A stretch of DNA of 64,000 nt. It comes from an uncultured Omnitrophica bacterium (GTDB taxonomy: Bacteria; Omnitrophota; Gorgyraeia; JACQQV01). A program made the position numbers and the translations under genes. The notes under the pieces were generated by a model. It worked only from the letters and a program-made list of their open reading frames with translations. It did no database searches and was not told the origin of the DNA. The stretch covers positions 3,827 through 67,826 of the forward strand of contig CAMTXH010000019.1 in the NCBI GenBank assembly GCA_947085655.1, read 5' to 3'. Numbering within the stretch: the stretch's first letter is position 1; every line of letters starts with the position of its first letter. This document shows positions 20,085-60,000 of this stretch, piece by piece.

Positions 20085-26527
<6,443 letters not shown>

Positions 26528-32884: not shown

Positions 32885-34116
32885 AATTCATTGCCGACTT
32901 CCACATCCATTCCAAATACAGTCGGGCCACCTCGAGCCATCTGGACTTGGATCAACTGGCGCAGTGGTCCAAGATCAAGGGGGTGGGGCTGATCGGGACG
33001 GGGGATTTCACCCATCCGATATGGTTCGAGGAGTTGAGGACAAAACTCCAGCCGACCGGGAAGGGCCTTTTCGAATATCAGGACGTGCACTTTATCCTGA
33101 CGACGGAGGTCAACACCCTTTTTTACCGTTCGGGGAGGGCAAAGAATGTTCATCATCTGATTTTCGTCCCGAGTCTTGAGACGGTCGAGCGGATCAACCG
33201 GGAACTCGCATTCTTCGGCAGTCTCGAAAGCGACGGGCGGCCGCTTTTGACGATGGAGGCAAGGCAACTCGTGAAGATCGTCCGGGGAATTGACCCGCGG
33301 GTGTATATCGTCCCGGCGCACGCCTGGACGCCTCATTTTGCCATTTTCGGCTCGCAATCCGGTTTTGACCGGGTGGAGGACTGCTACGAAGAGGAGGCCG
33401 GGAACATTTTTGCCCTTGAGACAGGGCTTTCGAGCGATCCGCCGATGAACTGGCGGTTGAGCGCTTTGGACAGGTATGCACTCATTTCAAATTCCGACTG
33501 TCACAGCGCCAAAAGGATCGCACGCGAGGCGAACTGTTTCGACTGCGAACTTGATTTTGATGCGATCCGGCAGGCGATCCGGAGTAAGGATCCGCAGAAG
33601 TTTCTCTTTACCGTGGAGTTTTTCCCGGAGGAGGGGAAGTACCATTTTGACGGACACCGAAAGTGTCGGGTGGTCTGGTCACCGGAGGAGACGAAGCATC
33701 ACAAGGGCCGGTGCACGGTTTGCGGACGGCCGGTCACCGTCGGAGTGATGAACCGGGTCGATTCCCTTGCCGACCGGCCGGAGGGGTACAAACCGGCCGG
33801 AGGCATTCCCTACCGGAACATGATCCCCCTTGACGAGATTATTTCGGAGGGGATCGGGACAGGGGTGGCCTCTCAGGCGGTCGAGCGGGAGTATCTTCGG
33901 ATGATTCAAGAACTTCAAAACGAATTCCATATCCTGTTTGACGCTTCCGAAGAGATGCTCCGGAAGCATGCCAATCCCAAAGTGGCGGAAGGGATTCTTC
34001 GGGTGCGGCAGGGCCAGATCAAGGTCCGGCCCGGTTATGACGGTGAATACGGTAAAGTCCAGATCTTCGGCGGAGAAGAAACCGTCTCTCAAGAAAAGCA
34101 GATGGAATTATTTTAA
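32881..34116 (+). CDS. PHP-domain phosphoesterase-like protein (TIGR00375-like) with Zn-ribbon
   Basis: Start MKFIADFHIHSKYSRATS (PHP His-motif) at ATG 32881 with GGAGG SD. CTVCGRP zinc ribbon near residue 300. Confidence 0.6.
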   Translation: MKFIADFHIHSKYSRATSSHLDLDQLAQWSKIKGVGLIGTGDFTHPIWFEELRTKLQPTGKGLFEYQDVHFILTTEVNTLFYRSGRAKNVHHLIFVPSLETVERINRELAFFGSLESDGRPLLTMEARQLVKIVRGIDPRVYIVPAHAWTPHFAIFGSQSGFDRVEDCYEEEAGNIFALETGLSSDPPMNWRLSALDRYALISNSDCHSAKRIAREANCFDCELDFDAIRQAIRSKDPQKFLFTVEFFPEEGKYHFDGHRKCRVVWSPEETKHHKGRCTVCGRPVTVGVMNRVDSLADRPEGYKPAGGIPYRNMIPLDEIISEGIGTGVASQAVEREYLRMIQELQNEFHILFDASEEMLRKHANPKVAEGILRVRQGQIKVRPGYDGEYGKVQIFGGEETVSQEKQMELF

Positions 34117-40981: not shown

Positions 40982-41067
40982 CCCTTCGACCCTTCGACAA
41001 GCTCAGGGTGGCGATCCTGAGCAAGGCCGAAGGCCGCGTCGAAGGACGCCATTTTGAAGGAGCAGGA

Positions 41068-42045
41068 ATGTTTTCCTTAAAATTCAGAATGACTATTTTG
41101 CTTGCAGTTCTTTTCGCGATTGTTTATGCGATCGTCACGATTGTGGGAACTGCCCTGGGGGTCGTCAATTTTTACTTTTATCTGGCGATCTCTTTGGGGA
41201 TGCTTTTCCTCCAATACCTGATCGGGCCGAAGATGGTGGAGTGGTCGATGCGGGTCCGTTATGTGACCGAAGGGGAGTCGCCGGGGCTTCACCGGATGGT
41301 GGAGGAGCTTGCACGAAGGGCCGGAATCCCGAAGCCGAAGGTTGGGATTTCGACTCTACCGATTCCGAACGCCTTTGCATTCGGGCGGGGGCGCGCCGAT
41401 GGAAGGATCTGTGTGACGGAAGGGATCCTTCGACTTCTGGATGAAAATGAGATGAAGGCGGTCCTTGGCCATGAAGTGAGCCACCTTAAAAACCGCGATG
41501 TCCTGACCATTACCCTTTTATCGGTGATTCCGATGGTCTTGTACCGGATTTACTGGCACACCCTTTTCTTCGGCGGCCGCGACCGGGGGAAAAACAGCGG
41601 GGCAGTCGCCCTGATTGGGCTTGGGGCCTTTGTCTTCTACTTCATTACAAATCTCCTCGTCCTTTATGCCTCCCGGCTTCGTGAGCTTTTTGCAGACAAA
41701 GGTTCCATCGCATTGGGGAATCGCCCTGAATGGCTTGCCTCGGGGCTTTATAAATTGGTCTATGGGTCCGCAAAGGCCGATAAGGAACGTTTGAGAGAAG
41801 CAGAGGGACTCAAGGCCTTTTTCCTGAACGACCCTTCCCGGGCCCTCCGTGAAATTCAAGAACTGAACCAATTGGACTTGAACCAAAGCGGCACCATTGA
41901 TGCGGATGAACTCCTTGCCATCCGGGCAAAAAGTGTGCGGCTTGGCTTTGCGGACAAACTCCTTGAAGTCTTGAGCACCCATCCCAATATGCTCAAGCGG
42001 GTCAAGGAACTCTCCCAATATTCCCAACATGGCCTCTACGGCTGA
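41068..42045 (+). CDS. htpX: HtpX-like M48 zinc metalloprotease
   Basis: Start MFSLKF at ATG 41068 with GAAGGAG SD. HEVSH zinc motif, multi-TM. Confidence 0.85.
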   Translation: MFSLKFRMTILLAVLFAIVYAIVTIVGTALGVVNFYFYLAISLGMLFLQYLIGPKMVEWSMRVRYVTEGESPGLHRMVEELARRAGIPKPKVGISTLPIPNAFAFGRGRADGRICVTEGILRLLDENEMKAVLGHEVSHLKNRDVLTITLLSVIPMVLYRIYWHTLFFGGRDRGKNSGAVALIGLGAFVFYFITNLLVLYASRLRELFADKGSIALGNRPEWLASGLYKLVYGSAKADKERLREAEGLKAFFLNDPSRALREIQELNQLDLNQSGTIDADELLAIRAKSVRLGFADKLLEVLSTHPNMLKRVKELSQYSQHGLYG

Positions 42046-42676
42046 ATCCTGCTGGTCCTGCCAGAAAAATCCCGGGCAAGGCCACTTCTGCCAACATTGT
42101 CATAAGATTCAACACGTTGAAAAAGAGGACCATTTTGCCTTTATGGGATTTCCCCACCGGATGAATTTGGATGTCGAGGCGCTCAAGAAAACTTTCTACG
42201 ATTTAAGCCGGAAACTCCACCCCGATTTTTTCCATGGGAAGAGTTTCAAAGAAAAGGTGCTGAGCGTTGAGCAAACCACCCTTTTAAACAAGGCCTACAA
42301 CACCCTGAAAGACCCGATTGCCCGGGCAGAGTATCTTTTGGACCTTGAGGTTCCTATTTCAGAGAAAGAGAGAACGAAGGTGGACCCCGTACTTGTCTCT
42401 GAAATTTTTGAAATCCAGGAAATGGTGGAAGAAGAAAAGGGATCCGGGAATCCCGCATTAAAAACCAAACTTCAGCAGTCCAAAAAGGAAGTGGAAGAAA
42501 AAATCAAGGCCCGGCGGAAGGTCCTTGAAGGGCATTTCAAAGAGTGGGATGTGCTTGAAAAAGATCCTGCCCACAAAAAAGACCTTGCCAGAACCATCCG
42601 GAAGGCCATCGACGAAATCGCCTACCTTAAAAACCTGATTCAATCCATCGAAACCGGCGGCCAAATCCGCCACTAA
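42029..42676 (+). CDS. hscB: J-domain co-chaperone, HscB-like, with N-terminal Cys4 zinc finger
   Basis: 215 aa with CWSC...CQHC tetracysteine, HPD motif (KLHPDFF) and a C-terminal helical domain. Confidence 0.7.
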   Translation: MASTAESCWSCQKNPGQGHFCQHCHKIQHVEKEDHFAFMGFPHRMNLDVEALKKTFYDLSRKLHPDFFHGKSFKEKVLSVEQTTLLNKAYNTLKDPIARAEYLLDLEVPISEKERTKVDPVLVSEIFEIQEMVEEEKGSGNPALKTKLQQSKKEVEEKIKARRKVLEGHFKEWDVLEKDPAHKKDLARTIRKAIDEIAYLKNLIQSIETGGQIRH

Positions 42677-42816: not shown

Positions 42817-42845
42817 TTGACAGGGATAAGGGGGGATGGTATACT
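42817..42845 (+). promoter_or_regulatory. near-consensus sigma70 promoter TTGACA-17-TATACT upstream of the giant-protein cluster
   Basis: TTGACA at 42817-42822, 17-nt spacer, TATACT at 42840-42845. The track ORF start at 42836 lies inside this promoter, so the real start is downstream. Confidence 0.6.
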
Positions 42846-42925
42846 TTGTTCCATCTCGGAACATGAACATCCCTTTTTTTGTGCAACATAACTTAAGACT
42901 TTTAAAAGAGATAAGGAGGATTAAA

Positions 42926-45900
42926 ATGTCCCGCAAGTTTTTCCTGTTCTTGGCTCTTCCGCTAATTGTCTCGTTAAGTTTCCCCGCTGTTGTTTATTCC
43001 AAGCCAACCACTCATTTAAAGACCCCCTCTGCCAGAGATGGCGGGGTGCACCAGGAACTCGCCTGGATTTTGGGGGCGGACGTTTCTCCTGCCCAGGCCT
43101 CTCAGTTGGCGGCCGGAGCGAAGGAACTGGTCAGTACTGCTTTTGACGAAAACCGTGCCTTTGTCACAGTTGGGGCAAGCGATAAGGAAATCGCAAAGCA
43201 GGTGGATGCCTATGCCAGGGCGTATCATGCGCGGACCGGTCGGCGGTTCAGCGTGGCTGGGACAGAGGTCTTTACCAATTTCGGCAATAATGTGAAAGAG
43301 ATAAGCGGAGAAATCGGAAAACTTGCCAGGAGCTGGCGGGAGCGGGCCGGAAAAGGGTTTGGCCGGGACAAACGCAACGAGGATGGGACACCCGATTACC
43401 ATGAAGTCAATATTAAAGATGCCCTTGCAGAAAGACTTGCAAGGGCTTCTTCTTTTATTCAGGAAACATTGGCAAGCGGGGAAGGAACCGTCTATGCCAA
43501 TACAGCAAAGCGTCTTTCAGAAGAGACGCGCATTGTTTTAGTCTTGGATGAAGAGGGAATCCCAACGCTTCTTTCCGTCTATGCCAATACAGCAAAGCGT
43601 CTTTCAGAAGAGACGCGCATTGTTTTAGTCTTGGATGAAGAGGGAATCCCAACGCTTCTTTCCAATGGTGTTGAAGGAACACCCGAACATCAGGCGCTCG
43701 TCTCCTATGCAGGACGTCACCGCTATGCCGGATGGAAGGGCGGAGATACCACGACGCCGAACCGTGCTCGTTCGATTTACTTGAGTCTGGTTCAGGTTGA
43801 GGAACTGATGAAGCGGGCCGATAAGGAAACACTGGGGTCTCTCCTTTACCATCACGACAGGGACCTTCAGAACGGAAAGCATGAAGATCCGTCACCGGCT
43901 GCGGCTGAGCGGGTGAACAGCGTCCTTCAGGAGATTTTCACCGCCTATCGTGAAAAATATCTGGCGAAAGTCGAAGCAGAACACAAGACAAAACTCCAAA
44001 GGGTGACCACAACGGTGGTCAGTCTGGATGTTGCGACCTGGCTTGGGGGCGCCACCCGGATTCCGGATGAGGTGGTTGCGTTTGCGGAGAACGAGCTTAA
44101 GAACGAAATGGCTGCTGGGACCATCACCGCCTTTGTCGTGAAAGCAAGGGGAAAGGACCTGGATATTCAGGCAAACCACCAAAAAGGTTCGGAAAGTCCA
44201 ATCATTCAAAAAATCCTCACTGACCTCATGGTTCGGACCCTTGTTCAAGCGGTTTCTCCATCCTCAGAGACAAGGGAGGAAGTGCACCAAACCGCTAGAT
44301 CGTACGTTAGTTACCGACCTGCCGAGATGACCTATACGGAACGGGGGGCAGAACCGATTTTGATTGCGAAGGCGATTGACGCAGGACCCGGCTTCTTCAA
44401 CAAAGCCCTTTGGAATATTTTCTCGCATCCTGATCTCCAGTCAACGACCACGATTGACGCTTTTGCCGCTCCAGGATTCCGCTATGTCCTTTCAAGCGTT
44501 GAAGACCTGAAGGCAGGAAAGAAAAATCCGAGAACCCTTGTCTTCACCACACCCAAAGACCGGGATCTATTGCAGTCCTTTGCTTCAAACCCAGACGCTT
44601 GGGTCATTACCGAGGTCTATACCACTGTCGATACTTTGACCGGCGGGAAGATTCCGACGGACGAACCGATCGCAACCGTGTCGTATCAGGTGGTTGAAAA
44701 TGCCAAGGGAGAAAAGTCGCTCCTTAATCCCAACGCGATTATCCGGATGCAGTCCGGTTCGCCTGCGGTGGGAGAAGCGACCAACGCCATCTTCAGACCG
44801 CAGATTTCAATCGGCGGGCCGAACGGAGAATATAACGTTGCCGTTTTTCCGGTGAGTGACGAAGAGGCGCGCACTGCAGCGTATCAGCCGGGGATGGCGA
44901 GAGTTGCGGCTTACGGCTATCAATCCTCCGAGGAAAAACCAGGGTCTCCGATCTTCGGCAGAATTCCTGAGGACCCGGTTACGAATAAGCAGATTGTCTA
45001 TGACCAGGTTCCAAGAAGTTCTGCGGCAAGACTGGTGCGTGAAAAATCGGCGCTTCTTGCCAAACTCATGAATGACCACGGGGAGTTCGACCCTTACGTG
45101 GTGGCAAGCGTTGCCGAAGCGCGTGCCGAGAAGGCCAAGGAAGCGAACTTAAGCCGCTTTGAAAAATTGCCTGGATTGGCCAAGGAGGATGATGTCATGG
45201 CCGCCTCCCGGAATCCACTCGAAGGACACTTTACCGTCTCACTCATCAAAATCGATACGGGTGGGGATATTGGTCACCAGGGGGTGCCGACGGAATACCG
45301 TGTCGTGACCGAGGCCTCTCTTGCCGCAGCCCGTGAAGCATCAAAAGGCCAACTCTTTTCCGACGCCCACTTTGGCTGGGCCGGAGACGACAATCAGATT
45401 AACATGGTTCACCGGCATGGCGTTGATAACGACACAATTCACAGCTTTGATATTCAGGTCTTCTGGCGGCAGGTTTGGGCAGCCACAGCGGCCGGCCACA
45501 AATGGTACGGCCGCGGCCAGGATTTGGTGGGCGAAGCCATTAAAAAAGGAGATGTCGAAATCCGCGCAGGACTCAATGATGAATTCATCGAAGCGCTCGG
45601 GAAACAACTCTCCGGGGAAAAATCGAAATATTTCGCAAAGGTCAAAGCCGCCTACGAGACCTGGAAGCAGAAAACAGGAGGACAGGAGGTCGGGAAGCCG
45701 TATTCGGGGAATGTCCAGGCGATGGGTCCCGGTCTTTCTGAACTCGTTGTCAAAGCGGGGCAGCAGGTCGGGAAACTCGCGATGGACAAAACCGGCCCCG
45801 GCGCTTTCAACATTCCTTTTTGGTGGGCAGCGAACCAGGCGCTCGAAAGGGGCGTCTACGACGATCTCATCTTTGAGATTTGGGACACCGAAAAACACGA

Positions 45901-47236
45901 AAGAATTTTTGTCAGTCTCAAAGAAGAAAGACCTTTGGCCAGACAACTCCTCGGTGCTGTAAACCGCTTTAACATTAAGCGGATCTGGACTAGAAAGCCC
46001 GGCCATAAATGGGTCCGTTCCAAGCCGAAAGAGTCGATCAGTGATCTGCCGATCGCTTCTCTTTCCACCGAGCGGCTTTCCATCATCTCCGGCGGGGAAT
46101 ATCTTGGGAAGGACGATCCGGTTGCGCTCGCCCATATTGAGTTCATGGACATTGTCTTTGAATTCATGCGGGATCACTTCTACATGAACCAGGGAGATGA
46201 ACGGGGATCGCACTACATGATGCCGCTTGCCGAAGCGCATGAGGATGCGGTGGCGACGCTCCGGAGCCGTGCGGTCCAAACCGCCGAGCGGTATGTCATT
46301 ACGAGTGACGGGAAATATGCCGGCAGAGAGGATGTTTACAAAGAACCGGCCTATGAGACAGCGCGGAGACGTCAGGTGGAATACAACGAACTCATCTGGG
46401 CGGTTCAGGGTTCTGAATGGCCGCCGGTCGGCGTCGGACCTGCACAGATTGAGGCCTCCTATCCTGCTGCACGGCTCATGGAGGAACTTGAAGCGGAGGA
46501 TTCGGAGTACCGGATCGAGCGGACGCTCACCTTGGCGGAAAGTCATGCCGCTTCCAAGTGGGCCGATCTTTTCCCTGCGATCGGCCGTTCCGTGAGCCCG
46601 AAAGTGGCACGGATGGCGGCAGATGGAGGAAATAAAGTCATTTTGATTAACGCTGAGACCTTCATCGAAGGACCGGATGGGCTTTTGGCGATCCAGAAGT
46701 ATTTCAGGGATCTTGGATTCGAGACTCCGGAAGAGGCCTTGAAGAGCCCGGTGAAGATTTACATCAATGTTCCGAAAGACGTCAAACCGAGCGAAGGAAA
46801 CGAGATCGTTGACCGGCTTCTCCGGACGGCCAAGGAGAAAACAGACGGTGCCGTGACACTCACCCGGGATTGGTTTGCGGGTGTTGTCTCGGGTACATCT
46901 GCAGATGATGTGCAAGGGAAAATTTTGAATGTGGAGGCTGGCATCGATGTTGTAATCGGGCCTACCGAATGGGCACATGGCCTCCAAAGAATTACAGGGC
47001 CGACTCTCGTGACGGTTGCTTTGGACCCTTCGCCTGATCAGGAAGCCCGTTCCGGCGCAGCGGCGTTTCTGATGGCGATTGAGGCGCTTGCCAATAATAA
47101 GGTCATCGATGAAGCTCTTGCACAGAAACTCTCTGTTCAGATTGATCAGGGCGCCTTGAGCATCATCGCAAGCCCGGTAAGCCCAAAGATTGAAACGGAT
47201 CTCACGGCCTACCGCGAAGCGATGCGCAAGGTGTAA
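42926..47236 (+). CDS. giant secreted protein A (1436 aa) with embedded fructose-1,6-bisphosphate aldolase/phosphatase-like domain
   Basis: ATG 42926 preceded by AAGGAGGA SD. Signal-peptide-like MSRKFFLFLALPLIVSLSFPAVVYS. Residues encoded at about 45227-46500 carry FBPA/P-family motifs in order (IDTGGDIGHQG, WAGDDNQINMVHRHG, GRGQDL, SGNVQAMGPG, DKTGPGAFNIP, GEYLGKDDP, ERGSHYMMP). Confidence 0.8.
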   Translation: MSRKFFLFLALPLIVSLSFPAVVYSKPTTHLKTPSARDGGVHQELAWILGADVSPAQASQLAAGAKELVSTAFDENRAFVTVGASDKEIAKQVDAYARAYHARTGRRFSVAGTEVFTNFGNNVKEISGEIGKLARSWRERAGKGFGRDKRNEDGTPDYHEVNIKDALAERLARASSFIQETLASGEGTVYANTAKRLSEETRIVLVLDEEGIPTLLSVYANTAKRLSEETRIVLVLDEEGIPTLLSNGVEGTPEHQALVSYAGRHRYAGWKGGDTTTPNRARSIYLSLVQVEELMKRADKETLGSLLYHHDRDLQNGKHEDPSPAAAERVNSVLQEIFTAYREKYLAKVEAEHKTKLQRVTTTVVSLDVATWLGGATRIPDEVVAFAENELKNEMAAGTITAFVVKARGKDLDIQANHQKGSESPIIQKILTDLMVRTLVQAVSPSSETREEVHQTARSYVSYRPAEMTYTERGAEPILIAKAIDAGPGFFNKALWNIFSHPDLQSTTTIDAFAAPGFRYVLSSVEDLKAGKKNPRTLVFTTPKDRDLLQSFASNPDAWVITEVYTTVDTLTGGKIPTDEPIATVSYQVVENAKGEKSLLNPNAIIRMQSGSPAVGEATNAIFRPQISIGGPNGEYNVAVFPVSDEEARTAAYQPGMARVAAYGYQSSEEKPGSPIFGRIPEDPVTNKQIVYDQVPRSSAARLVREKSALLAKLMNDHGEFDPYVVASVAEARAEKAKEANLSRFEKLPGLAKEDDVMAASRNPLEGHFTVSLIKIDTGGDIGHQGVPTEYRVVTEASLAAAREASKGQLFSDAHFGWAGDDNQINMVHRHGVDNDTIHSFDIQVFWRQVWAATAAGHKWYGRGQDLVGEAIKKGDVEIRAGLNDEFIEALGKQLSGEKSKYFAKVKAAYETWKQKTGGQEVGKPYSGNVQAMGPGLSELVVKAGQQVGKLAMDKTGPGAFNIPFWWAANQALERGVYDDLIFEIWDTEKHERIFVSLKEERPLARQLLGAVNRFNIKRIWTRKPGHKWVRSKPKESISDLPIASLSTERLSIISGGEYLGKDDPVALAHIEFMDIVFEFMRDHFYMNQGDERGSHYMMPLAEAHEDAVATLRSRAVQTAERYVITSDGKYAGREDVYKEPAYETARRRQVEYNELIWAVQGSEWPPVGVGPAQIEASYPAARLMEELEAEDSEYRIERTLTLAESHAASKWADLFPAIGRSVSPKVARMAADGGNKVILINAETFIEGPDGLLAIQKYFRDLGFETPEEALKSPVKIYINVPKDVKPSEGNEIVDRLLRTAKEKTDGAVTLTRDWFAGVVSGTSADDVQGKILNVEAGIDVVIGPTEWAHGLQRITGPTLVTVALDPSPDQEARSGAAAFLMAIEALANNKVIDEALAQKLSVQIDQGALSIIASPVSPKIETDLTAYREAMRKV
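43490..43663 (+). repeat. perfect 87-bp tandem duplication inside giant gene A
   Basis: Two identical 87-nt units (43490-43576 and 43577-43663) encoding VYANTAKRLSEETRIVLVLDEEGIPTLLS twice. Confidence 0.85.
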
Positions 47237-48210
47237 TGATTACGCAATACAGCACGCAGTACACCTCCATGGTGATCAAGATGAGGGGACGGTTTCCCTG
47301 GCCTGCCGACCAGGGCAGGCTAAACCGTCCCCTCGTTTCTTTAGTGGTTTCCCTTCCTTTAATAGGGACTCTTGTCTTCCCCCCTTCTATCTATGCCGAT
47401 ATCCCCGCTCAATTACGGGCGCCGATGACCTCCAGAGATGAAGGCGTAGCCCAAGCCATTGCAAGAGACCTCTCACTCCTTTCAGGAAATCGGGCGGTAC
47501 AGGATGGCGGCAACCGGACGGAGCAGGAGGGTGACTTAGCGTCGGAGGCACTGGATGCCGAAACCCTTGGGAAGATGGTGATACGTGCCATTCCGGAGGT
47601 TGTCCCGCCGTTATCATCCGACATTCTTCAAACAACATTCCAGGGAACGATTGCCGTCTACGAAGAATCGCTCGACAACCTCACCATTGCCACCATGGTG
47701 GAGCGGTTTGCGCGTCAATTAAACAGTGCACGCTCTAAAATCGGATTCGTTCTGGTTTCCACATCAGGGAAATCCGAATCTGAGATTGCCGCGAAAGTCT
47801 ATCGGGATTCGAAGGGTTTGGTCAATCTGAGCGGTACTTTCCGGGCAACACTTGTGGAGGGCGAAGTCAACGCATTGAATCCTTTGTCGGTTGTGGCGGC
47901 ATTGGAAGAAAAAAGACTCCCGCCTCTTGTGGAACTCGTCGCACCTTTGGAAATCGTGGTCGCTTACCGAAGACCTGGCATCGAACTGTATGGATGGCTC
48001 GTATCCCGTAACCCGCAGGAAGGGGAGGCGGGCATTGCGAACGGCGCACCGGCCCTTCGGGAACTGGTCGAGCTTTTGGGGTTGGGGGAGAAGGAACGGG
48101 CGAGTCTCCTTCGGGATGGAGGCCGATCGTTCATGGTTAACATTCAGCGCTATGAAGAAGATTTCGAAGCGTTCGATTTCTCCTATCGTGAAGGCCGCAA
48201 AAGCGATTAG
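47236..48210 (+). CDS. signal-peptide protein B (324 aa) consisting of the module shared with the C-terminus of giant C
   Basis: TAATG overlap with the A stop. Hydrophobic segment LVSLVVSLPLIGTLVF. Residues from about 95 to the end align with the last 230 aa of ORF C (for example FDFSYREGRKSD versus LDRSYRENRGL). Confidence 0.75.
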   Translation: MITQYSTQYTSMVIKMRGRFPWPADQGRLNRPLVSLVVSLPLIGTLVFPPSIYADIPAQLRAPMTSRDEGVAQAIARDLSLLSGNRAVQDGGNRTEQEGDLASEALDAETLGKMVIRAIPEVVPPLSSDILQTTFQGTIAVYEESLDNLTIATMVERFARQLNSARSKIGFVLVSTSGKSESEIAAKVYRDSKGLVNLSGTFRATLVEGEVNALNPLSVVAALEEKRLPPLVELVAPLEIVVAYRRPGIELYGWLVSRNPQEGEAGIANGAPALRELVELLGLGEKERASLLRDGGRSFMVNIQRYEEDFEAFDFSYREGRKSD

Positions 48211-48688
48211 CAGACGAATAAGTTGAAGCAAAAGTTAGATTTTGTCCCTTGACAATCAAGGGATTAAATGATATCCTTAATGTAAAGAAATTGAAATTTT
48301 TGTGTATACATCTTGTTTATTTGTAAAAGGTTGTAACTTAACTGGAAATAGCATCTTTCAAAATTTGGTCTTTCTTTACTCAAGGTTTGTTCACTAGATA
48401 AACGCAAACCATTCGTGAGGATGGGACTGCAAAGCCTTGGACCCTGCACTAATTTTCGGGGAAAATTAGTGCTGGCAGCCGGGTTGCCTAAAGGAACAGC
48501 GGCCCGGTTTTTTTATTCCCTCGGCCTGAATGGCCTCGGGATCAATTTAGTCAGCAGACTTACGTTCGCTTTGCTCCGTAAGTCTGGACTTCATTGTTCG
48601 GCGTGGGGGCTCCGGCTTCCTTCTTCCCAAGGCAAGAGGCGGAGCAATTACAGGAGCCCTCACGAACCGATCCGGAGGTGAAGAAAAG
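48211..48688 (+). promoter_or_regulatory. long structured 5' leader/intergenic region upstream of giant gene C
   Basis: AT-rich at 48280-48400. Hairpin TCCCTTG-ACAAT-CAAGGGA (48245-48263) overlapping a TTGACA-17-TATCCT promoter-like pair. Perfect 10-bp stem CAGACTTACG/CGTAAGTCTG (48554-48585). Stem plus T7 run at about 48475-48512 (terminator-like). Confidence 0.45.
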
Positions 48689-51600
48689 ATGAAGAAATCC
48701 GGTTTTTGGTTCAAACTTACTGCCTGTCTTATTCTTCAGATTTTTCTGTTCTTCACAGTCAGTCCCATCCCTGCCTCTGCCTTACCCACGCCAACCCAAT
48801 CCCATTTAAGGTCCATTTCAACCAGAAGCTCCGATGGAGGGGTTCGACTTCTTCAACAGGAACTTTTGCGGCCGGCGGGTGTTCCAGCGCCAGACGCTCT
48901 GCAGCCCATTGACGTTTACATCGCTGCAACTTTCGATCACGCCACAGGGCCAACCTCTTTCGAGGGGCGTGTCCGTCGTTTGGTTTCGGCGGTGGCTCAA
49001 GGTGAGTACGAAGGAGTTGATCCGCAAACGCTCGTTCCTCTTTTTCTGAAGGAGTTAACACCGGATCAAGCGGATCTTCATGAATCGATCGGGGGAGAAT
49101 GGGAGCGTCTAAACGGCACTTGTCAGACGTGCGGTGTGAATTCCTTTTATGAGTTACCTTCGACGGGCAGGGTGTCTTCCCAAGACCTCCGCAGAGTTCC
49201 GAGGGAAGTTTTGGGAAGTCTTGTTGCGGCTGTTCATATCGCCCAATCCGGGCGTCTTTCCTTCCACCCCCGAACAAACGAAATCCTCTATTCCGCTTTT
49301 GATCTTGGTTTGGTCTACGGGATGTCTGTTCACCAACTTCCAAAAGCAGAAAAAGCGTTACGAAGTTTGGTTCCAAATGCAGAGCGGGGACTGATTGTCC
49401 ATCTTGCCGCTCTTGATCCGGAGGGTCGGGGGGGTCATTTCGCGGCGGTTAAAACAATCGGGGAAAACGAAGTCATTGTCTTGGATAAAGGGAGAGAAAT
49501 CACCCTCCCGCTTCCGGAATTTCTCAGGCAATGGTCCGGGTATTTCCTCACTTATTCTCAAACCTCCTCAGCGAAGGTTGTCCCGCAGGAAGAGGCAAAG
49601 GAAGTCATGGGATGCTGCGGGACCTACGGCGAGATTATCTCTAAGGGGGCATACCATCAGCAGCCGGATGTGGATATTGCGCAGTTAAGCAGCATTGCGG
49701 CGCTTATCGAGCAGCACGGCCTTCAGGCACTTGTGAAAAACAATCAGGAAAGACTCTTTTTTGCGGGAGAGGAGGATGTCCAAATTGACGCTGTGGGGCG
49801 GTCGGGAAGTATTTCCTTCATTGAATATACCGGAAGGGATGAAGAACCTGTCCAACGTCATCCCCACACCCTGAATGCCGACGAAATCAAAAAGGTTAAA
49901 GGTTATGTCCACCTTCGTGAGAAAGCAGCCGCTCAACTCGAGGAAGTGCATCGGCTGAACGAACAAGTCGAGAAAGCGAAGTCAAAATATGGAAAGGGCA
50001 AAGACAGCAATCAGTCCTGGGAGGAGTGGCGGAAAAACCGCCATCACGGTTGGAAGGAGTGGCAGAGAGGGGCCGGGGAAGCAAAAGAGGCCAAAAAGAA
50101 ATACCAGCAATATCGGAATGATTATTTGGAGGAGAGGGAAAAGGTATTGGGTCAATTTATCGCGAACATTTACCCTGGGCAGCGGACCCGGTTTCAAAAT
50201 TATCTTCTGGAGTCGTATTTAGGCGGCCGAGAACAAATACAGAAATTTTTCAGCCAATTTTACCATTTGAAGCGTATTGTAAATCTTGAATTCATCTTCA
50301 ACAATCCGTCCGTTCGCGCGGAAATCCGCTCTTTGGCGGACCGGCTCCGTGTCTTGATCGCGGAAGAAGAGAGGTTATACAAGAAGTTTGTCGAGGACGG
50401 GTTATTACACCAACAGGATCTGGAGGCTTACAAAGGACGGATGGCACTCCTCAAAGATATGGAATGGTTCCTCACTGAAGATGTCCTCCGGCACATCGAT
50501 GAGATCATGAGTTTGGGGGGCATCGAAGAACGTGATTTACCGGTCTCTTCGCACGCGTTTCAGGCCCTTCGTGCAGTGAATACGGCCCTTGTGGCGATTG
50601 ACAAGCGACTTGAAACACGGGGGCGGGATTCGCTGGGCGTTGCCATTTCTCTTAGCGTGCCTGATGTGAAAACTTACCATCGGCTGAGAGACGCCCTTCA
50701 TAATAACGGATTTCGGTCAGAGTATGAGAGACGGCGGGAACGGGGAACAATGAATTTGGACAATCTCGCAATCCGCATGCAACACAGCCATAAGCCCAAT
50801 GGGGACATCGATGCAGACAGACCAGTCACCATCACTTTTGTTTACAAGGTAGCCGAAGCGGTGGGGAAACTGGGGGACAATGCAAGGGCAATCCGGAAGT
50901 CTATTACCGAGGATGAAGTGTTTAAGCGGGTGATCCGGGCAGATCTTGAAAACATTGTGGTCACGGCCCAATCCCGTTGGGCCTCTGCCGGAGGAATCAA
51001 CATTCCGAATGCCCATCCTGTGGACAACCGGGGGATTTATCTCATCGATGGCAGACAAAGAGAACAGATATGGGAACTTTCGGCAGATCAAATCCCAAAG
51101 TATGGTAGAAATGGAACCCTTTTTGTGGTTCTAAACGGCGATATTGATAATTATAACAGCGAGCGGGAAGGAAAACCGAATCTCACAAAGGTCTATGAGG
51201 AAGACCAGCTCAATACCGTACCCCGTCATATTCATCCGGAGGCCAGTTCAGACACCAAAAGGATTCCGCTTCGGATCGAACATTATTTGGCGCGCGGCCA
51301 TGACCTGAAAGAAGCATTCCGCCTTGCGGTGAACGATTTCGGCGGCTCTTTTGCGATCCAGATGCAGAGTGACCTGGAGCCGGGAAAAATTTTTCTTGCG
51401 CAGCACGGAGAAGGGCAAGCGCTTTATGTCGGAATTTCGGAAGATGGGTTTCATTCCTCTTCCGAACAATACGGGTTTGTTGAGTCGACTCAGCGTTACG
51501 TCGAGATGCAGGCAGGGCAAATCATCATTTTGGACCAGGCAAGGAAACCGGGTGTTGAGCAAATCGAGGCGTATGACTTTGATGGAACGCCGATTAAATT

Positions 51601-54076
51601 TACCGATGCCAATCTTCAAACCACCTCTGTGACAAGCCGCGATATCAATATCCGCGGTTACAACCATTTCCTTGAGAAAGAAATCCACGAGGCCCCCCAG
51701 ATGTGGGAGGATACCATCAGCGGGAAGACGGGCATCGATGTGGATCAAAGCGGAGTTAAAACGCCGTGGGTATCCCTCTCCCCCTTTGACGAATTACCGG
51801 TGAGAATTCTTCAAAGACTCGCGGACCAAGAAAATCCTACCCGAAAAATCTATGTCACCGGTATGGGAACGGCGGATGCGGCAGGTTCGGTGGTAGCAGG
51901 GCAGATCCGGGATTATTTGAGACTCGTCGGTCACGATGAAATCGAGGTGGAAGATATTATTGCGACCGAGTTAAGCGGATTCAAGTTACGGGAAAACATG
52001 AGCGACGTATTGATCGTGGCAGTCAGTCAATCCGGAAAGACGACGGATACCAATACGGCGATCAGTCATGCCAAAAAGAGAGGGGCCGGGGTTCTTGCGA
52101 TTGTGAATACACGCGATTCGAAATTGACGACTTTTGCGGATGGGGTCCTTTATACCGGGACAGGCCGTGACATCGAAATCGCAGTGGCTTCCACCAAGGC
52201 CTATTATGCACAGGTCGGCGCAGGGGCCCTTTACGCGATGGCACTTGCCGAGGGTCTTCTCCAAATGGACAGAGAACGGATTCGGGAGATGCCGGGTAGC
52301 CGCGAACGGACGGCCCAGTGGAACGAACTGGCCAAACGAGAGAAGGAGTTACAGAGGGTGATGTTGGAGGACATCAAAGAAATGCATTTGATGCCGGCAA
52401 AGATAACAACTTTTCTAAACGCCGTTCAAACTCTGGAAGAGGCATACCAAAAGGCGAAAAGAAAAGGTGCAACAGGAGTCCGACGCCATCCTCTTGTGGC
52501 AGCTGCCCATAACTGGCCGCTTCGGAAACTGGAGTGGAAAGTTTTGGGAAGCGGGCCGAATTATCATTCTGCAAAAGAGGGACGGATCAAACTCTCCGAG
52601 TTAACGTACAGCAGCCTGCCGTTTGACCACGTCGAGAATTACAAGCATATTGATTTTTCCGCAGAACCATGGGTGATCGCAAACATTGCGAATGTCTCGG
52701 GGTGGGAGAATACCTTCCATTCCGACATCGAATCCGAAGTCACCAAGATGCTTTCGCACAATGCGGCCTTAACGCTTATTGTTGCGGAGGACGATGCCCG
52801 TTTTAACTCTCTTGAGCAGGAATTCCTGACGGTGGAAGGAAAAAGGGAAAAAGGCCCCATTGATATCATCCGTATTCCCAAAACCAGCGAACGCTTTGCA
52901 CCTGTCCTTTCGACATTGGCGATGCATCTTTTGGCTTATCATGTAGCGCTTGCCCTGAACGAAAGAGCGAATGCGGTAATGAAAGTTCATGACGAGATTT
53001 TATATCAGACAGCGAGACTGAGAAACCATTACGGAAAGAAACAGGCCTCGAGTGATAACATCAGCGGTCTTATTTTGAAAAACAAGACTTTCCGGAAAGT
53101 GGCCAGAGAAAGAATCGGCGAACTCTTCCCGCAATTTAGAGAGGGTATCTTCAACAAAGGATTCGGCTCGGATCGGACCTTTTCGACGATGATTTTGTTG
53201 ATGGCCGCCGCTGGACATATTTCACTGGAACAGACAAACCAATTTTTGGGGAAGGATTATACGCCCGACACGTTTCTGGAAGCGCTTCCGGACTTTTTGA
53301 TGCACCAGCGGATGCGTCTTACCCGGACGGTGGATTCGGTTCTTCACCAGGCGAAGTTCGTGACTGTTGGAACCAAGCGCCAGACGGGATCGGAGTCAGC
53401 GGCGGCTGGGAGAGACGGCGGCGTGAGGCAGACCGCAGCAGTACTGGAAAGCGCAATCCAAGGTCTTTCGCCAGAAGTTTCTCTGTCCCAGTCGGTCCTT
53501 CAGTCCACCGTTCAAGGGACCGTTATAGTTTATGACGATGCGCTGGATAATTTGTCTATTGCCAAAAAGGTTGAACAACTTGCAAGCCAATTGAGGAATG
53601 CCGGCTCATCCATAGGATTCAGTCTGATTTCCCGTTCGGGGAAGGGGGCTGCGGGGATTGCCGAAGAGGTCTATCGGCATTCCAACGGCCTGGTTGACCT
53701 CTGGGGTCTGTTTCAAACATCTCTCGCCGAGGGTGAGGTCAATGTGCTTGACCCCAGGGCAGTGGATACGGCGCTGCGGCAGAGAGGGCTGGTGCCTCTT
53801 GAGCTCGTTGCCCCGCGGGAGATCGTTGATCTTTACAAAGAAAACAAAATCCAACTCTATGCCTGGCTGGTCTCCGGGAATCCAAAAGAGGGTGAGCCGG
53901 GCGTAGTTTACGGTGCAGAAGCCCTTCACCAAATGGTTGAGATCTTTGGATGGAACCCTGCCGACACCGAAATCCTTCTGGTTGAAGGCGGTCTGGAATT
54001 TACAGCGACGTTAGAGCGCTTTGAAGGGGACATCGAAGCCCTGGACCGCTCCTATCGTGAAAATCGCGGGTTATAA
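48689..54076 (+). CDS. giant secreted protein C (1795 aa) with embedded GlmS-like amidotransferase+2xSIS unit and C-terminal B-like module
   Basis: GGAGGTG SD. Signal-peptide-like MKKSGFWFKLTACLILQIFLFFTVSPIPASA. The region encoded at about 50560-53000 parallels glucosamine-6-P synthase end to end (RGRDSLGVAI, QSRWASAGG..NAHP, VVLNGDIDNY, YVTGMGTADAAG, VSQSGKTTDT, AVASTKAYYAQ, LLAYHVALAL), but the position of the N-terminal catalytic Cys is internal and occupied by non-Cys residues. Confidence 0.8.
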   Translation: MKKSGFWFKLTACLILQIFLFFTVSPIPASALPTPTQSHLRSISTRSSDGGVRLLQQELLRPAGVPAPDALQPIDVYIAATFDHATGPTSFEGRVRRLVSAVAQGEYEGVDPQTLVPLFLKELTPDQADLHESIGGEWERLNGTCQTCGVNSFYELPSTGRVSSQDLRRVPREVLGSLVAAVHIAQSGRLSFHPRTNEILYSAFDLGLVYGMSVHQLPKAEKALRSLVPNAERGLIVHLAALDPEGRGGHFAAVKTIGENEVIVLDKGREITLPLPEFLRQWSGYFLTYSQTSSAKVVPQEEAKEVMGCCGTYGEIISKGAYHQQPDVDIAQLSSIAALIEQHGLQALVKNNQERLFFAGEEDVQIDAVGRSGSISFIEYTGRDEEPVQRHPHTLNADEIKKVKGYVHLREKAAAQLEEVHRLNEQVEKAKSKYGKGKDSNQSWEEWRKNRHHGWKEWQRGAGEAKEAKKKYQQYRNDYLEEREKVLGQFIANIYPGQRTRFQNYLLESYLGGREQIQKFFSQFYHLKRIVNLEFIFNNPSVRAEIRSLADRLRVLIAEEERLYKKFVEDGLLHQQDLEAYKGRMALLKDMEWFLTEDVLRHIDEIMSLGGIEERDLPVSSHAFQALRAVNTALVAIDKRLETRGRDSLGVAISLSVPDVKTYHRLRDALHNNGFRSEYERRRERGTMNLDNLAIRMQHSHKPNGDIDADRPVTITFVYKVAEAVGKLGDNARAIRKSITEDEVFKRVIRADLENIVVTAQSRWASAGGINIPNAHPVDNRGIYLIDGRQREQIWELSADQIPKYGRNGTLFVVLNGDIDNYNSEREGKPNLTKVYEEDQLNTVPRHIHPEASSDTKRIPLRIEHYLARGHDLKEAFRLAVNDFGGSFAIQMQSDLEPGKIFLAQHGEGQALYVGISEDGFHSSSEQYGFVESTQRYVEMQAGQIIILDQARKPGVEQIEAYDFDGTPIKFTDANLQTTSVTSRDINIRGYNHFLEKEIHEAPQMWEDTISGKTGIDVDQSGVKTPWVSLSPFDELPVRILQRLADQENPTRKIYVTGMGTADAAGSVVAGQIRDYLRLVGHDEIEVEDIIATELSGFKLRENMSDVLIVAVSQSGKTTDTNTAISHAKKRGAGVLAIVNTRDSKLTTFADGVLYTGTGRDIEIAVASTKAYYAQVGAGALYAMALAEGLLQMDRERIREMPGSRERTAQWNELAKREKELQRVMLEDIKEMHLMPAKITTFLNAVQTLEEAYQKAKRKGATGVRRHPLVAAAHNWPLRKLEWKVLGSGPNYHSAKEGRIKLSELTYSSLPFDHVENYKHIDFSAEPWVIANIANVSGWENTFHSDIESEVTKMLSHNAALTLIVAEDDARFNSLEQEFLTVEGKREKGPIDIIRIPKTSERFAPVLSTLAMHLLAYHVALALNERANAVMKVHDEILYQTARLRNHYGKKQASSDNISGLILKNKTFRKVARERIGELFPQFREGIFNKGFGSDRTFSTMILLMAAAGHISLEQTNQFLGKDYTPDTFLEALPDFLMHQRMRLTRTVDSVLHQAKFVTVGTKRQTGSESAAAGRDGGVRQTAAVLESAIQGLSPEVSLSQSVLQSTVQGTVIVYDDALDNLSIAKKVEQLASQLRNAGSSIGFSLISRSGKGAAGIAEEVYRHSNGLVDLWGLFQTSLAEGEVNVLDPRAVDTALRQRGLVPLELVAPREIVDLYKENKIQLYAWLVSGNPKEGEPGVVYGAEALHQMVEIFGWNPADTEILLVEGGLEFTATLERFEGDIEALDRSYRENRGL

Positions 54077-57000: not shown

Positions 57001-60000
57001 GGCGATCATCCGATCCCCGGGCTCGAAGGACCGAAGGGGACAGAGGAGATGATCGCCCTTGTGCATCAAGCGGAACCACAGGATATGGTCATCTCGCTCA
57101 TTTCCGGCGGCGGGAGCGCCATCGGTGCCCACCCCGTCTTTAAAATGTCCCTTAAGGACTTGCAGACACTCTATCAGCTTCTTGAAAGCACACCCATCCC
57201 GATTCATGAAAAGAACGTTATCCGTAAACATCTTGATGCACGCGCTGACCTCTTGCGGGTCTCAAGAAATGCAAAACATTTTGTCAGTCTCATCATTTCC
57301 GATGTCCCCGGGGATGATCCCCGCGACATCGCTTCCGGTTATACCGTCGGAGACACCAGCACATTTCGCGATGTGAAGGAACTTCTTCAGAAATACCACC
57401 TCTGGGGGAGAATTCCGGCATCCATCCGGAATTTCATCGAGCAAAATGTCATTAGTGATCCTGTGTTTGAACAGGTTCACCCCGAAGATCCCCTTTTCAA
57501 GGGCGGCCGAGTTCATACCGCACTTTTGGTCGGGAACCGTCCGGCCCTTGAACGGGCGGCGGAAGTGGCGCGCGCACTGGGATATGAGACAAAAATTATT
57601 GAAGAGCCACTTTCCCGCACGGTGGAGGCAGAGGGCGTACAGATCGTGGAGGAGATCATCGAGGCCTCCGATTCCCCGAGGGAAAAACCCCTTGCGATCC
57701 TCTGGGGCGGCGAGACGGTGGTTGATCTTCCCGAAAGCCCGGGGCGCGGCGGGAGGAATAGTCACCTGGCCATGACCATCGCAAAAGACCTTTTTGACCT
57801 GAATCTCCCGGAAGTGACCTTCCTTGCGGCAAGCACAGATGGCAAGGACGGCTCTTGGGACGGGACCGGGGCGGTGGTGACAGGCGAGACCGTGGCACGC
57901 GCGCAACAGGCGCGCATGGAGCTCTCCGACTTCTTAAGGCGCTTTGATTCCGGGACCTTTGCCGAAAAGACGGGGATTGATGTGACAACCGGACCCACCG
58001 GAACGAATGTGATGGATGTTGCCATCGCGTTAATTCCTGCCGGGATGCCAGAAGAGGCGCGCGAGGGCGGGAACCGAGAGGCGATTCGCAGCGCAGGAAG
58101 AGCGCTTGCGGGATTATTGCGTTCAAAACTCATCAATCTGCGGGATGCCGAGAAGATGCCGGCTGAACTCCGGCGTGCACTCAGTCAAGATGTCCACGAA
58201 AGACTCCGGCAACAATTGCATCCCACGCTTCTCAGGGAAGTCGGAGATGTCGAAAAGCCCGTCCTGGAAAGGACCCTTCGGGATGCCGCAGTTTTGGCTT
58301 CCTTGTCTCCCGAAGATCCCAAGGGCATCAAGCAGTCGGCTTTTCTGGCAGGGCGTATTTTAGAAGATATTAATCAATATGCCTCTTCCTCTGCGTCGTT
58401 ACGGGCCTCTTGGCATGCGCCGCGGGATCCATCCGGAAAGGTGATGGTGGATCCCCGATATGAGGAATACCGGAAGGCGATCTGGAAAAGCCCTTCCCAC
58501 TGGAATTTTAAGGGGATTCGGGGTCTCCTTGAGGCGCTTGAAGAGGAAACGCTGAGGGAAACGCTGCGACAATTCGCCGCAAGCGGTGAGACATTTGTTG
58601 TGGCAGAGATTGGGACGGGGAACGGCCCTTTGACGCAAGAACTCCTTGAGATGTTCAAGCGGTTCAGCGTCAAAAATTACAAAATTCTTGCGACCGATGT
58701 GAATGCGAGTTGGCTCGCTTCCGCTTATGAACGGTATGGAGACAAAAAAAGTCCCCATTATGATCCTTCCGTGGAATTTTATCTGGTCCGTTCCGAGGAT
58801 GAACAGGGGCGGTCCTTCAGGGATTTTGAGAAACTCTCCACAACGCTCGGCGGGCAGAAAGTCCATTTGGTGATCGGATCGCATGCGATCCATCTCATCG
58901 GGCAGTTTGACCAATTCGCAGCGGGAGTCCGCGAAACACTTCTCCCGGGCGGCTTTGCCGCTTTCCAGAGTTTGAACGTGGAATATCCTGGCCGGGTTTC
59001 GGCGGATGGAACGGGTCCTTTCCTCATCGATGATACCGCAAACCGTGTCCATGACCTTGCCGTTGAACTGATTCGAAACGACGCAAGATACGCCGGTTAC
59101 CGGGAACGGGTTTCAGAGGAAAACATCGCAAAAGCACTCCAGACTCGTCGGGCGGTTTTCCCACCGGTCCGGGACCAAAGCGAATATCTGACGCATCTTA
59201 AAGATCATGGCTTTGGTATTTTGGTCCCTTATGCCTCTCCTTCTTATCCGGCAGAGTATATCCATGTTCTCTATGAGGACTGGGGAGAATTTTTGAAACT
59301 TGAACTTTTGCAGAACGGTATCCTTCCCGAATTGCACAAAACCCCTGTTCAATCCGAGGTCATCGCCGAGGCGGCGGAACGGCTCTTTGAGTGGATGCGC
59401 CGGGAAAACGAAGAAAAGAGAAATCCTTTCACGAGCAAGGAGAAGAAGGGTTCCTTCATCGTCGGCTCCACCATCATCATTGCAAAATTGGGGAGGGAAG
59501 AAAGGTCGCCAGTCGAGCCGGAACGCTTTGCCCGGGATGGGGGGAGGAGAGGGCTCGAAATAGAGCGGCGCGAGGCGCTGGTTGCCTATCTTGATGGGAT
59601 TCTCGATGCAACTCCCACACAGGGCCCCGGCGTGATCTCATTGGATGTGAAGGTCGAACAATTAGCATCGCAGTTTGCGCTTCCCCCCGAAACCGTGAAG
59701 CGATTCCTTGGGGATTCGGATGTCTTCCAGATCTTACCAGATGGACAGATTACTTTTGATCGAAGCATCGGGGAGGATTCCGAAGCCCTTCGCTTTTTCG
59801 CAATGACGGCCAAAAAATGGATCGCCTCCGCCCGAGACGGCGGGTTCAAGGTTGGCGATGTCAAGACAGTAGAAGTGGAAGAAACGATTTCGGCATTACC
59901 GGAGGAGATTGCAAACGAGACGGATCAGCGTTATCAAGATGGGCGGCTGGTCGGAAGAGAAGGATTTGGCAATATTATTGATGCGATTGAGGACCGTGTA

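Follow-up and report, generated by a model that had tools for sequence, protein, structure and literature searches.

C39 domains close to the N-terminal signal peptides of giant proteins have been described in Omnitrophota; in the available passages of that work, self-cleavage is proposed and the cleavage points are given as unknown (West-Roberts et al. 2023, bioRxiv 10.1101/2023.11.21.568195). A 2026 preprint (bioRxiv 10.64898/2026.06.07.730766), as far as its available passages go, reports a C39 architecture cluster and multi-enzyme metabolic giant proteins (class 1), and raises for the giants the same paradox between export and cofactor need that arises below. Here we analyze a locus in a 64,000-nt stretch of DNA (hereafter the window) from an uncultured Omnitrophica bacterium (assembly GCA_947085655.1, contig CAMTXH010000019.1). 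Four genes in one direction, A, B, C, and D, encode modular proteins of 324 to 2059 amino acids (aa), and a previously undescribed domain, which we call tail-1, is found in B and at the end of C. Relatives are cited by protein (P) or locus (L) number.

Judged against the available text of these sources, the proteins share with the multi-enzyme giants the phylum, many metabolic Pfam domains per polypeptide, a signal peptide or anchor at the N-terminus, and, shortly after it, a C39-like domain. Of the features of class 1 given there, many Pfam enzyme domains, an N-terminal hydrophobic segment, and Omnitrophota relatives are present, whereas the length is not reached: the family spans 0.3 to 3.3 kaa (thousand aa), its longest relative (>3324 aa) running off the end of its locus, and the catalogue threshold is at least 10,000 aa. 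In size, the system is a reduced version of the C39-bearing multi-enzyme proteins of Omnitrophota. Neither our literature searches nor the available passages of the Omnitrophota papers mention its A-x-DGG-x-[KR] junction, its HLRxP leader, or its three interchangeable tail types.

Other described systems resemble the locus in part. PCAT-type C39 exporters (PCAT1, ComA) have the same papain-type Gln/Cys/His/Asp set, a Gly-Gly at the proposed cut, and a first site at the end of the leader. They differ in that the peptidase here, whose activity is putative, has no ATP-binding cassette (ABC) transporter fused to it, nor does the window encode one; the would-be substrates are enzymes of 0.3 to 3 kaa, the leader is Sec-like and hydrophobic, the sites recur between enzymes, and A-[RK]-D stands upstream of the glycines instead of LSxxELxxIxGG. 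MARTX toxins, coronavirus PLpro substrates (LxGG), and polyubiquitin (RGG) likewise combine several domains and their own cysteine protease with short junctions ending in Gly-Gly, but they have no sequence kinship to the family, whose cargo is metabolic enzymes and which lacks type I secretion system repeats and a C80 domain, so that the analogy is one of logic alone. Dockerin-cohesin pairs, encapsulin cargo peptides, and bacterial microcompartment peptides also present a C-terminal element that is common to unrelated enzymes, better conserved than they are, and found cargo-free as well. Tail-1, for which docking is putative, is instead a Rossmann-like domain of 205 aa and not a short peptide or a Ca-binding dockerin, and neither the window nor the related loci revealed a receptor gene (cohesin, shell, or encapsulin).

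Tail-1, a C-terminal domain shared by B and C

An old duplication has left one globular α/β domain in two paralogous copies, one in B and one making up the last ~205 residues of C. By BLASTP, with composition-based statistics, residues 120-321 of B align with 1595-1793 of C at 105/202 identities (52%) with 3 gaps (E=3e-59), and Smith-Waterman alignment of B 95-324 with the final 230 aa of C scores 488, where 300 shuffles score 35.6 ± 6.0 (z=76). With a Shannon entropy of 3.9 bits each, the two segments are of normal complexity; together with the z score this rules out a chance or low-complexity origin. A preliminary description of the window had proposed B as a free-standing paralogue of the C-terminal module of C and had named poor significance or low complexity as grounds for giving the idea up. 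Neither was found between B and C, and the paralogy is borne out. The strings that it quoted and the shared end are present (SYREGRKSD in B, SYRENRGL in C). It had put the match at a full-length 230 aa with 40-45% identity; the similarity holds, while the identity is higher and the domain shorter (~205-210 aa). A hidden Markov model (HMM) of the family places the homologous domain at 113-322 in B and 1590-1795 in C, and the 20-25 residues before it are a linker that follows a DGG junction.

To gauge the spread of tail-1, we searched an HMM built from the B and C copies exhaustively against one representative per 50% cluster of ~15 billion proteins (1.84e9 sequences). Ten proteins were found at E≤1e-3, all ten at E≤2.5e-27. 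These carriers range from 324 to 1795 aa, and their 90% clusters hold one to three sequences each among the 15e9 proteins. The match ends within two residues of the C-terminus in 9/10 carriers; in the tenth, P0010, it stopped ~25 residues short in the first search, and an HMM of all ten sequences reaches the last residue. Tail-1 is therefore never N-terminal among the ten, and an earlier suggestion that the module might serve as an N- or C-terminal building block survives for the C-terminus only. The terminal residues usually read YRxNRG[V/L]. The family HMM is matched over its whole length by both B (E 5e-94) and C (E 4e-91).

Scans of genomes and metagenomes located, apart from the strain of the window, three tail-1 loci in two Candidatus Omnitrophota metagenome-assembled genomes (MAGs) and five further loci in metagenomes. 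In NCBI the carriers are named hypothetical protein, once 'triose-phosphate isomerase', of Candidatus Omnitrophota (three carriers so named). The family is thus lineage-restricted, so far occurring only in MAGs and metagenomes of Candidatus Omnitrophota. The preliminary description had called it an unassigned domain family specific to this cluster of genes; unassigned it is, and with ten representatives it is not confined to the cluster. A word-index homology search returned only B itself with B as the query, and nothing with our alignments of the C39 region (A3) or of tail-2 (A4). A viral or mobile origin is unsupported, as no relatives were found in IMG/VR viral contigs and the locus lies in a conserved chromosomal block beside oriC genes.

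Tail-1 has no match in Pfam, where none of the ten members scores even at E≤10, nor in NCBIfam or by sequence search of the PDB. AlphaFold2 gave a predicted local distance difference test (pLDDT) score of 39 with B and C only, and 88.4, with a predicted template-modelling score (pTM) of 0.88, with the ten-sequence alignment (A2). The resulting model is a doubly wound, Rossmann-like α/β domain with a long C-terminal helix. Foldseek detected no significant neighbor for it (best E 0.015 in PDB and 0.0056 in BFVD, TM≤0.43), and the weak matches are to generic Rossmann-like, GT-B-half, USP, HAD, NAD synthetase, and cytidylyltransferase folds. On this modelled basis, tail-1 is a new domain family that folds confidently and has no known relative. 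The motif L-I-S-T-S-G-K-S-E suggested a diverged SIS domain (PF01380); in addition to the missing Pfam match, hhalign against residues 1001-1564 of C gave a probability of 0.35% and no SIS or GlmS structure is among the top 50 Foldseek matches, and we rejected this candidate.

Alignment A2 has 24 invariant and 29 near-invariant positions, concentrated where strands 1, 2, 4, and 5 end and along the loops that follow. They make up the motifs Y-E..N-L-T, S-T-S-G, S-x-G-x-x-D, E-L-x-A-P, and N-P-x-E-G-E-x-G-I-A-N-G-A and the terminal Y-R-x-N-R-G-[V/L]-COOH. In doubly wound α/β folds the usual ligand site is formed by the loops at the C-terminal ends of the β-strands, and in the model the conserved loops of tail-1 would be such a site. 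B and C keep all 24 invariant positions; among the ten aligned copies, B is the only one without the NRG end, having EGRKSD.

Genes A and D, by comparison, do not match the family HMM. A comparison of B with both had been suggested; the profile of the module matches neither the N-terminus or tail of A nor the tail of D usefully, and they carry other tail types instead. The reported resemblance of the module to the N-terminal 150 aa of A (FVTVGASDKEIAKQV) likewise dissolves, since hhalign with the ten-sequence profile gave a probability of 0.3%. The sole significant similarity between A and B by BLASTP covers residues 37-76 of A and 36-76 of B (41% identity, E=1e-5), and what had been taken for the module is, judging from these residues, the common leader with its signal peptide, HLRxP, and DGG. 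B is more than a copy of the domain, being a family member in its smallest complete form, with leader, junction, and tail and without enzyme cargo.

Leaders, DGG junctions, and exchange of cassettes and tails

In all 18 family proteins with an available N-terminus, the start consists of a basic n-region, a single hydrophobic run of ~19-20 residues, a c-region of small residues (ASA, VSA, or xYS), HLRxP, and a DGG-type site, which is DGG or a degenerate DG[ASN], DAG, or DEG. B has a single hydrophobic segment (aa 33-52), its HLRxP reads AQLRAP, and after its degenerate first site, RDEG, come an amphipathic spacer of 20 aa, a DGG junction, and tail-1. Paired junction-type sites, separated by 11-28 residues, are found in the leaders of B, D, P0003, P0006, P0008, P0009, P0010, and L010_704, where they enclose a short amphipathic segment of the form x-[KR]-x-hydrophobic-hydrophobic-x-x-[ED]-L that may be a recognition helix or a released peptide.

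The DGG motif recurs along the proteins with the consensus A-x-D-G-G-x-[K/R]: Ala is found at -2 in 32/52 sites, R, K, S, or Q at -1, and K or R at +2 after GG in 40/52. There are 52 DGG in 26,929 family residues compared to 2 in 13,445 residues of 32 other window proteins, and 40 DGG.[KR] compared to none. Within the window, A to D hold 10 DGG where 1.7 are expected (P=1.4e-5). The codons of the junctions vary, which indicates that selection acts on the peptide and rules out a DNA-level repeat or recombination signal.

Pfam domains are never interrupted by a canonical junction, and the segments between junctions match the sizes of whole enzymes. P0009, for example, reads DGG 61, triose-phosphate isomerase (TIM) 81-344, DGG 357, enoyl-CoA hydratase 378-680, DGA 691, DGG 794, tail-1. 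In C, a signal peptide (cleavage-like ASA|L), an HLR motif, and a DGG (aa 49) precede the C39-like peptidase, an invariant GCCG, a GlmS-like amidotransferase with SIS domains, a DGG, and tail-1, while the cargo of D is a cupin, a 2-hydroxyacid dehydrogenase, a glycerate kinase, and a methyltransferase. In addition to these enzymes and the fructose bisphosphate (FBP) aldolase/phosphatase of A, the family carries 3-hydroxyacyl-CoA dehydrogenase, glutamine synthetase, class II fructose-bisphosphate aldolase (FBA-II), pyruvate phosphate dikinase (PPDK), a pyridoxal phosphate (PLP) enzyme, acyl-CoA synthetase, glutamate dehydrogenase, and HEAT repeats. Most of the cargo consists of central-metabolism enzymes. 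A DG[GS] junction stands 5-25 residues before tail-1 in 7/10 carriers and 94 residues before it in P0010.

At least three tail types close the family proteins. Tail-2, found in A and in L006_635 (L006 5730-6350; 40% identity over 245 aa), follows the pattern DL(T/A)(A/T)YR..M..V. It is about as long as tail-1, and hhalign aligns the two collinearly but weakly (E 0.013, probability 3%), making the tail-2 of A at best a very remote relative of tail-1. Tail-3, with the pattern V(L/V)(K/V)GL, closes proteins of the D type and the GlmS-type open reading frames (ORFs) of L008 (1754-8482) and L010 (1969-9759).

Comparisons between relatives show that leader and tails are conserved bookends around a variable cargo, whose gains, losses, and exchanges evidently fall precisely on the junctions. 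For the GlmS-type pair C and P0004, BLASTP detects the tail alone (47% over 228 aa), and between A (FBPase cargo) and L006_635 (hydratase cargo) it detects only the leader (42%) and tail-2 (40%). P0009 (L006 1313-4369) and its adjacent paralogue L006_635 (L006 4449-6353) share a leader block of 66% identity that ends exactly at AARDGG and a hydratase block of 60% identity that runs precisely from the A.DGG junction to just short of the next one. These two blocks imply that P0009 holds a TIM cassette inserted between two junctions and a different tail, tail-1 in place of tail-2. GlmS-type proteins, similarly, end in tail-1 in the window and in L005 and in tail-3 in L008 and L010. Such swaps at DGG sites indicate that the junction motif marks both domain borders and evolutionary breakpoints. 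We hold the modular architecture, together with the paralogy of B and C, to be highly probable, and consider it likely that the junctions are functional recognition motifs.

The C39-like domain and possible processing

Peptidase_C39 (PF03412) matches directly after the leader in C (17.8 bits, E 0.003) and in its three orthologues in L008, L010, and L006 (18.8 bits, E 0.0016; 22.8 bits, E 8.7e-5; 17.1 bits, E 0.0051; cut-off 22). Across these four sequences, which have 26-30% overall identity, C145, C148, G149, H250, D266, W282, and G284 are invariant, within the motifs Q-C-x-x-C-G, GxHF, (I/L/V)D(R/K)G, and W-x-G. The catalytic Cys, His, and Asp and the oxyanion Gln of C39 peptidases are thus kept in the right order; which Cys is catalytic we infer. 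ABC transporter domains are absent from C and from all 36 proteins of the window that were scanned.

C39 enzymes cleave after Gly-Gly. The position of a C39-like peptidase behind the leader of C suggests that the junctions may be double-glycine processing sites. In the explanation that we favor, the junctions would be recognition sites, most likely of the double-glycine type, for this divergent peptidase, and proteins of the A to D type would be processed polyproteins, with B and C both yielding or displaying the same tail-1 product of ~215-230 aa. The conservation of tail-1, far above that of the cargo, implies that a partner or ligand is conserved as well. The module would dock or assemble differently loaded proteins at one place, bind a small, possibly phosphorylated or nucleotide-like ligand, or both, with the conserved loops that line the C-terminal edge of the β-sheet as the binding surface, and B would supply cargo-free copies. 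As a whole, we regard this explanation as somewhat more probable than not. Its parts are individually more tentative: actual cleavage of the junctions is a possibility on which we would not yet rely, and that tail-1 is an end-module for docking or ligand binding, and not an enzyme, is conceivable to about the same degree.

A second feature of C also bears on cleavage. Class II (Ntn) amidotransferases need their nucleophile Cys as a free N-terminus. C and the L008, L010, and L006 orthologues share the invariant GCCG, which lies ~25 residues downstream of the C39-like domain at the start of the GlmS-type glutaminase and whose second Cys aligns with the N-terminal nucleophile of GlmS; the L008 orthologue continues as CGIISIVGK. 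The glutaminase domain also carries an insertion of ~450 aa. Given the internal position of this nucleophile, at least one cut, by the peptidase or by Ntn-type autoproteolysis, would be required if the glutaminase is active.

Several observations weigh against processing as we describe it. Three of the four PF03412 matches fall below the gathering score and one above it, and a four-sequence profile searched against the PDB reaches six PCAT-type C39 chains (including PCAT1) at E 0.2-1.1 only, all on the His/Asp/WTG segment. The residues before the junction (A-[RK]-D-G-G) are unlike the classical double-glycine leader consensus, which has hydrophobic residues at -4, -7, and -12. The signal peptides were called by reading the sequence with a hydropathy window and not with a dedicated predictor. 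Junctions are missing at some domain borders, as between the dehydrogenase and glycerate kinase of D and among the PALP, AMP-binding, and lyase domains of L005_3324, and the orthologue pair P0005/P0007 has none before tail-1, which suggests that the tail can work while attached. Export of ATP- and NAD-dependent central-metabolism enzymes is hard to rationalize. The conserved polar crevice of the tail-1 model would suit an enzyme as well as a docking domain, and B, with its divergent end (EGRKSD compared to NRGV) and first site, could be functionally relaxed. Cleavage at the junctions is something that we infer from sequence.

In addition to the peptidase of C, an HtpX-like M48 metallopeptidase encoded upstream of the modular genes is an alternative candidate for a processing enzyme.

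Some of these points would equally be expected if no cleavage occurred and the proteins were intact, N-terminally anchored multi-enzyme fusions. The junction would then be a hinge, a linker, or a site of binding or modification (e.g., at the Lys/Arg after GG), tail-1 would oligomerize, and B would be a cargo-free tuning subunit. Borders without a junction and the direct fusion of tail-1 in P0005/P0007 agree with this, as do the stronger conservation of tails than of cargo and the one hydrophobic segment per protein, whose h-region of ~19-20 residues is long enough for a signal anchor; the 2026 preprint (bioRxiv 10.64898/2026.06.07.730766) also, in its available passages, treats the Omnitrophota multi-enzyme giants as single membrane-associated polypeptides. 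However, intact fusions leave the internal GlmS-type nucleophile without the cut that its activity needs, and every GlmS-type orthologue keeps a peptidase domain with catalytic-type residues. One type of site stands both after the leader and between cassettes, as a processing signal would, and seven constrained positions are more than a simple hinge calls for. We consider this alternative doubtful, though the strongest of those weighed here.

A further alternative concerns tail-1 only, which might itself be an enzyme or small-molecule sensor with Rossmann-like binding of a nucleotide, sugar nucleotide, or phosphate, contributing a common step to each fusion, with B as the stand-alone version. 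Its joining to unrelated enzymes (GlmS, TIM with enoyl-CoA hydratase, glutamine synthetase, and 3-hydroxyacyl-CoA dehydrogenase with enoyl-CoA hydratase) argues against a pathway-specific step, and its strict C-terminal position and conserved final YRxNRGV better suit an element for sorting or docking. The invariant polar and Gly residues do cluster in loops at the C-terminal strand ends, the weak Foldseek neighbors are all binders of nucleotides or sugar nucleotides, and P0005/P0007 keep tail-1 fused without a junction; yet no structural match is significant, and Pfam and NCBIfam recognize no nucleotide-binding motif. An enzymatic or sensory tail-1 is in our judgment unlikely.

That B is a decaying relic without function, left by partial duplication at the 3′ end of C, or an artifact of assembly or gene calling, is highly improbable: although it alone among ten copies lacks the NRG end and it has a DEG first site and AQLRAP for HLRxP, its 324-codon ORF is intact and its protein identical in one NCBI MAG and three Logan assemblies (with 1 nt in 6841 differing across the B-C region), it keeps 24/24 family-invariant positions and a full leader and junction of its own with a start overlapping the stop of A, the duplication is old (52% protein identity) yet the frame is preserved, and short tail-1 genes hold the same place upstream of the C39-GlmS gene in L008/L009 and L010. 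In these loci the short gene lies directly upstream and encodes, respectively, P0003, which consists of a leader, three junctions, a 120-aa helical piece, and tail-1, and a P0005-type protein.

Gene order, chromosomal setting, and implications

Coordinates of the features discussed above are collected in Table 1.

Table 1. Positions of the modular genes and their features in the window
Feature	Position	Strand	Content or basis
Gene A	42926-47236	+	Leader, DGG (43037-43045), FBP aldolase/phosphatase-like cargo, DGG (46622-46630), tail-2
Tail-2 of A, ending DLTAYREAMRKV	46631-47233	+	
Gene B, 324 aa	47236-48210	+	Leader, degenerate site RDEG, DGG junction, tail-1; no cargo enzyme
DGG junction of B, aa 90-92 (AVQ-DGG-NR), 20 aa before tail-1	47503-47511	+	
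Tail-1 copy in B, aa 113-324	47572-48207	+	Family HMM match 113-322, alignment A2, AlphaFold2 model
Cyclic di-GMP (c-di-GMP)-I (GEMM-I) riboswitch aptamer, leader of C-D operon	48393-48491	+	Rfam 49.5 bits, gathering score 35
Gene C, 1795 aa	48689-54076	+	Translation, domain matches, alignment A3
C39-like (papain-type) cysteine peptidase domain of C, ~aa 140-290	49106-49558	+	Pfam PF03412, alignment A3
Invariant G-C-C-G of C, aa 308-311	49610-49621	+	Alignment A3
DGG junction of C, aa 1576-1578 (AAGR-DGG-VR), directly before tail-1	53414-53422	+	
Tail-1 copy ending C, aa 1590-1795, last residues YRENRGL	53456-54073	+	
Gene D, 2059 aa	54076-60255	+	Leader, DGG at 54289, 55057, 59536, and 59836; tail-3 ending VLVGL
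Tail-3 of D	~59845-60252	+	

The probable start of A is M31 of the long ORF, the longest ORF beginning 90 nt earlier (42836-42925). A strong sigma-70-like promoter (TTGACA-17-TATACT, 42817-42845) precedes A-B and overlaps the upstream ATG, and a public 1407-aa gene call in GCA_964374045.1 agrees with the later start. The ATG of B overlaps the stop codon of A (ATGA), and that of D overlaps the stop codon of C; the D orthologue in L008 is 37% identical over 1017 aa. The window as a whole is nearly identical to the MAG GCA_964374045.1 and to three Logan assemblies.

Within A, positions 43488-43663 hold a perfect 87-bp tandem duplication (2.0 copies, 100% identity) that adds 29 aa, with VYANTAKRLSEETRIVLVLDEEGIPTLLS present twice. 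The unit is single-copy in the otherwise near-identical assembly GCA_964374045.1 (L001), and the duplication is either a strain polymorphism or an assembly artifact.

C-D has its own sigma-70-like promoter (48249-48277) before the c-di-GMP-I aptamer, with a terminator-like GC stem and T-run at ~48481-48516, and a terminator follows D. The same aptamer precedes the tail-1-bearing GlmS-type gene in L005 (6021-6096, 52.5 bits), which belongs to another Omnitrophota MAG; in L006 a match at 6827-6899 is sub-threshold (27.5 bits), and none was detected in L008.

The window covers the chromosomal origin region, with rnpA, yidC, mnmG, parAB, dnaA, dnaN, gyrB, gyrA, and a pyrimidine operon, followed by tRNA-Val/Asp, an M48 peptidase, an HscB-like J-protein, A-B, C-D, and then icd, mdh, and sucC. 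The order tRNA-M48-HscB-polyprotein is kept in relatives, and ordinary leaderless enzymes (PEPCK, Icd, Mdh, and SucC) adjoin the modular genes. The HtpX-like M48 metallopeptidase, which has an EF-hand-like match, and the HscB-like J-domain protein lie at 41008-42676 in the window, 430-1473 in L011, 1577-2302 in L012, and 5005-5784 in L005, and at 62-72% identity are far better conserved in relatives than the modular proteins. Elsewhere in the window, gyrB (20405-24043) contains an intein (Intein_splicing domain at ~aa 450-820, between the GyrB and Toprim domains), and two ORFs inside the pyrimidine-biosynthesis operon, 30604-31350 (248 aa) and 32797-34116 (439 aa), have no Pfam match.

Whether the enormous multi-enzyme proteins of Omnitrophota, which are uncultured nanobacteria, are used whole or cut up is a standing question, and published work, in its available passages, names the missing cleavage points as what blocks analysis of the giants. 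The locus described here is a small, tractable version of the problem, in which delimited cassettes, a Gly-Gly junction, a C39-like peptidase, and leader and tail bookends make processing directly testable. It also restates the puzzle of export, since GlmS, TIM, FBPase, and glutamine synthetase carry export-type leaders though such cargo needs ATP, NAD(P)H, and sugar phosphates. A broader reading, which we regard as speculative and rather unlikely, is that A-x-D-G-G-x-[K/R] marks the sites where N-terminal C39-like peptidases cut exported long and giant polyproteins of Omnitrophota into enzymes, with tail-1 as a released docking subunit. If the junction motif stays within this tiny clade (~14 sequences in 15 billion), it would be a lineage-specific curiosity. 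If the broader reading is true, it would reveal a polyprotein strategy for central-metabolism enzymes in a cellular bacterium, and the motif would allow in silico dissection of the 10-150 kaa giants.

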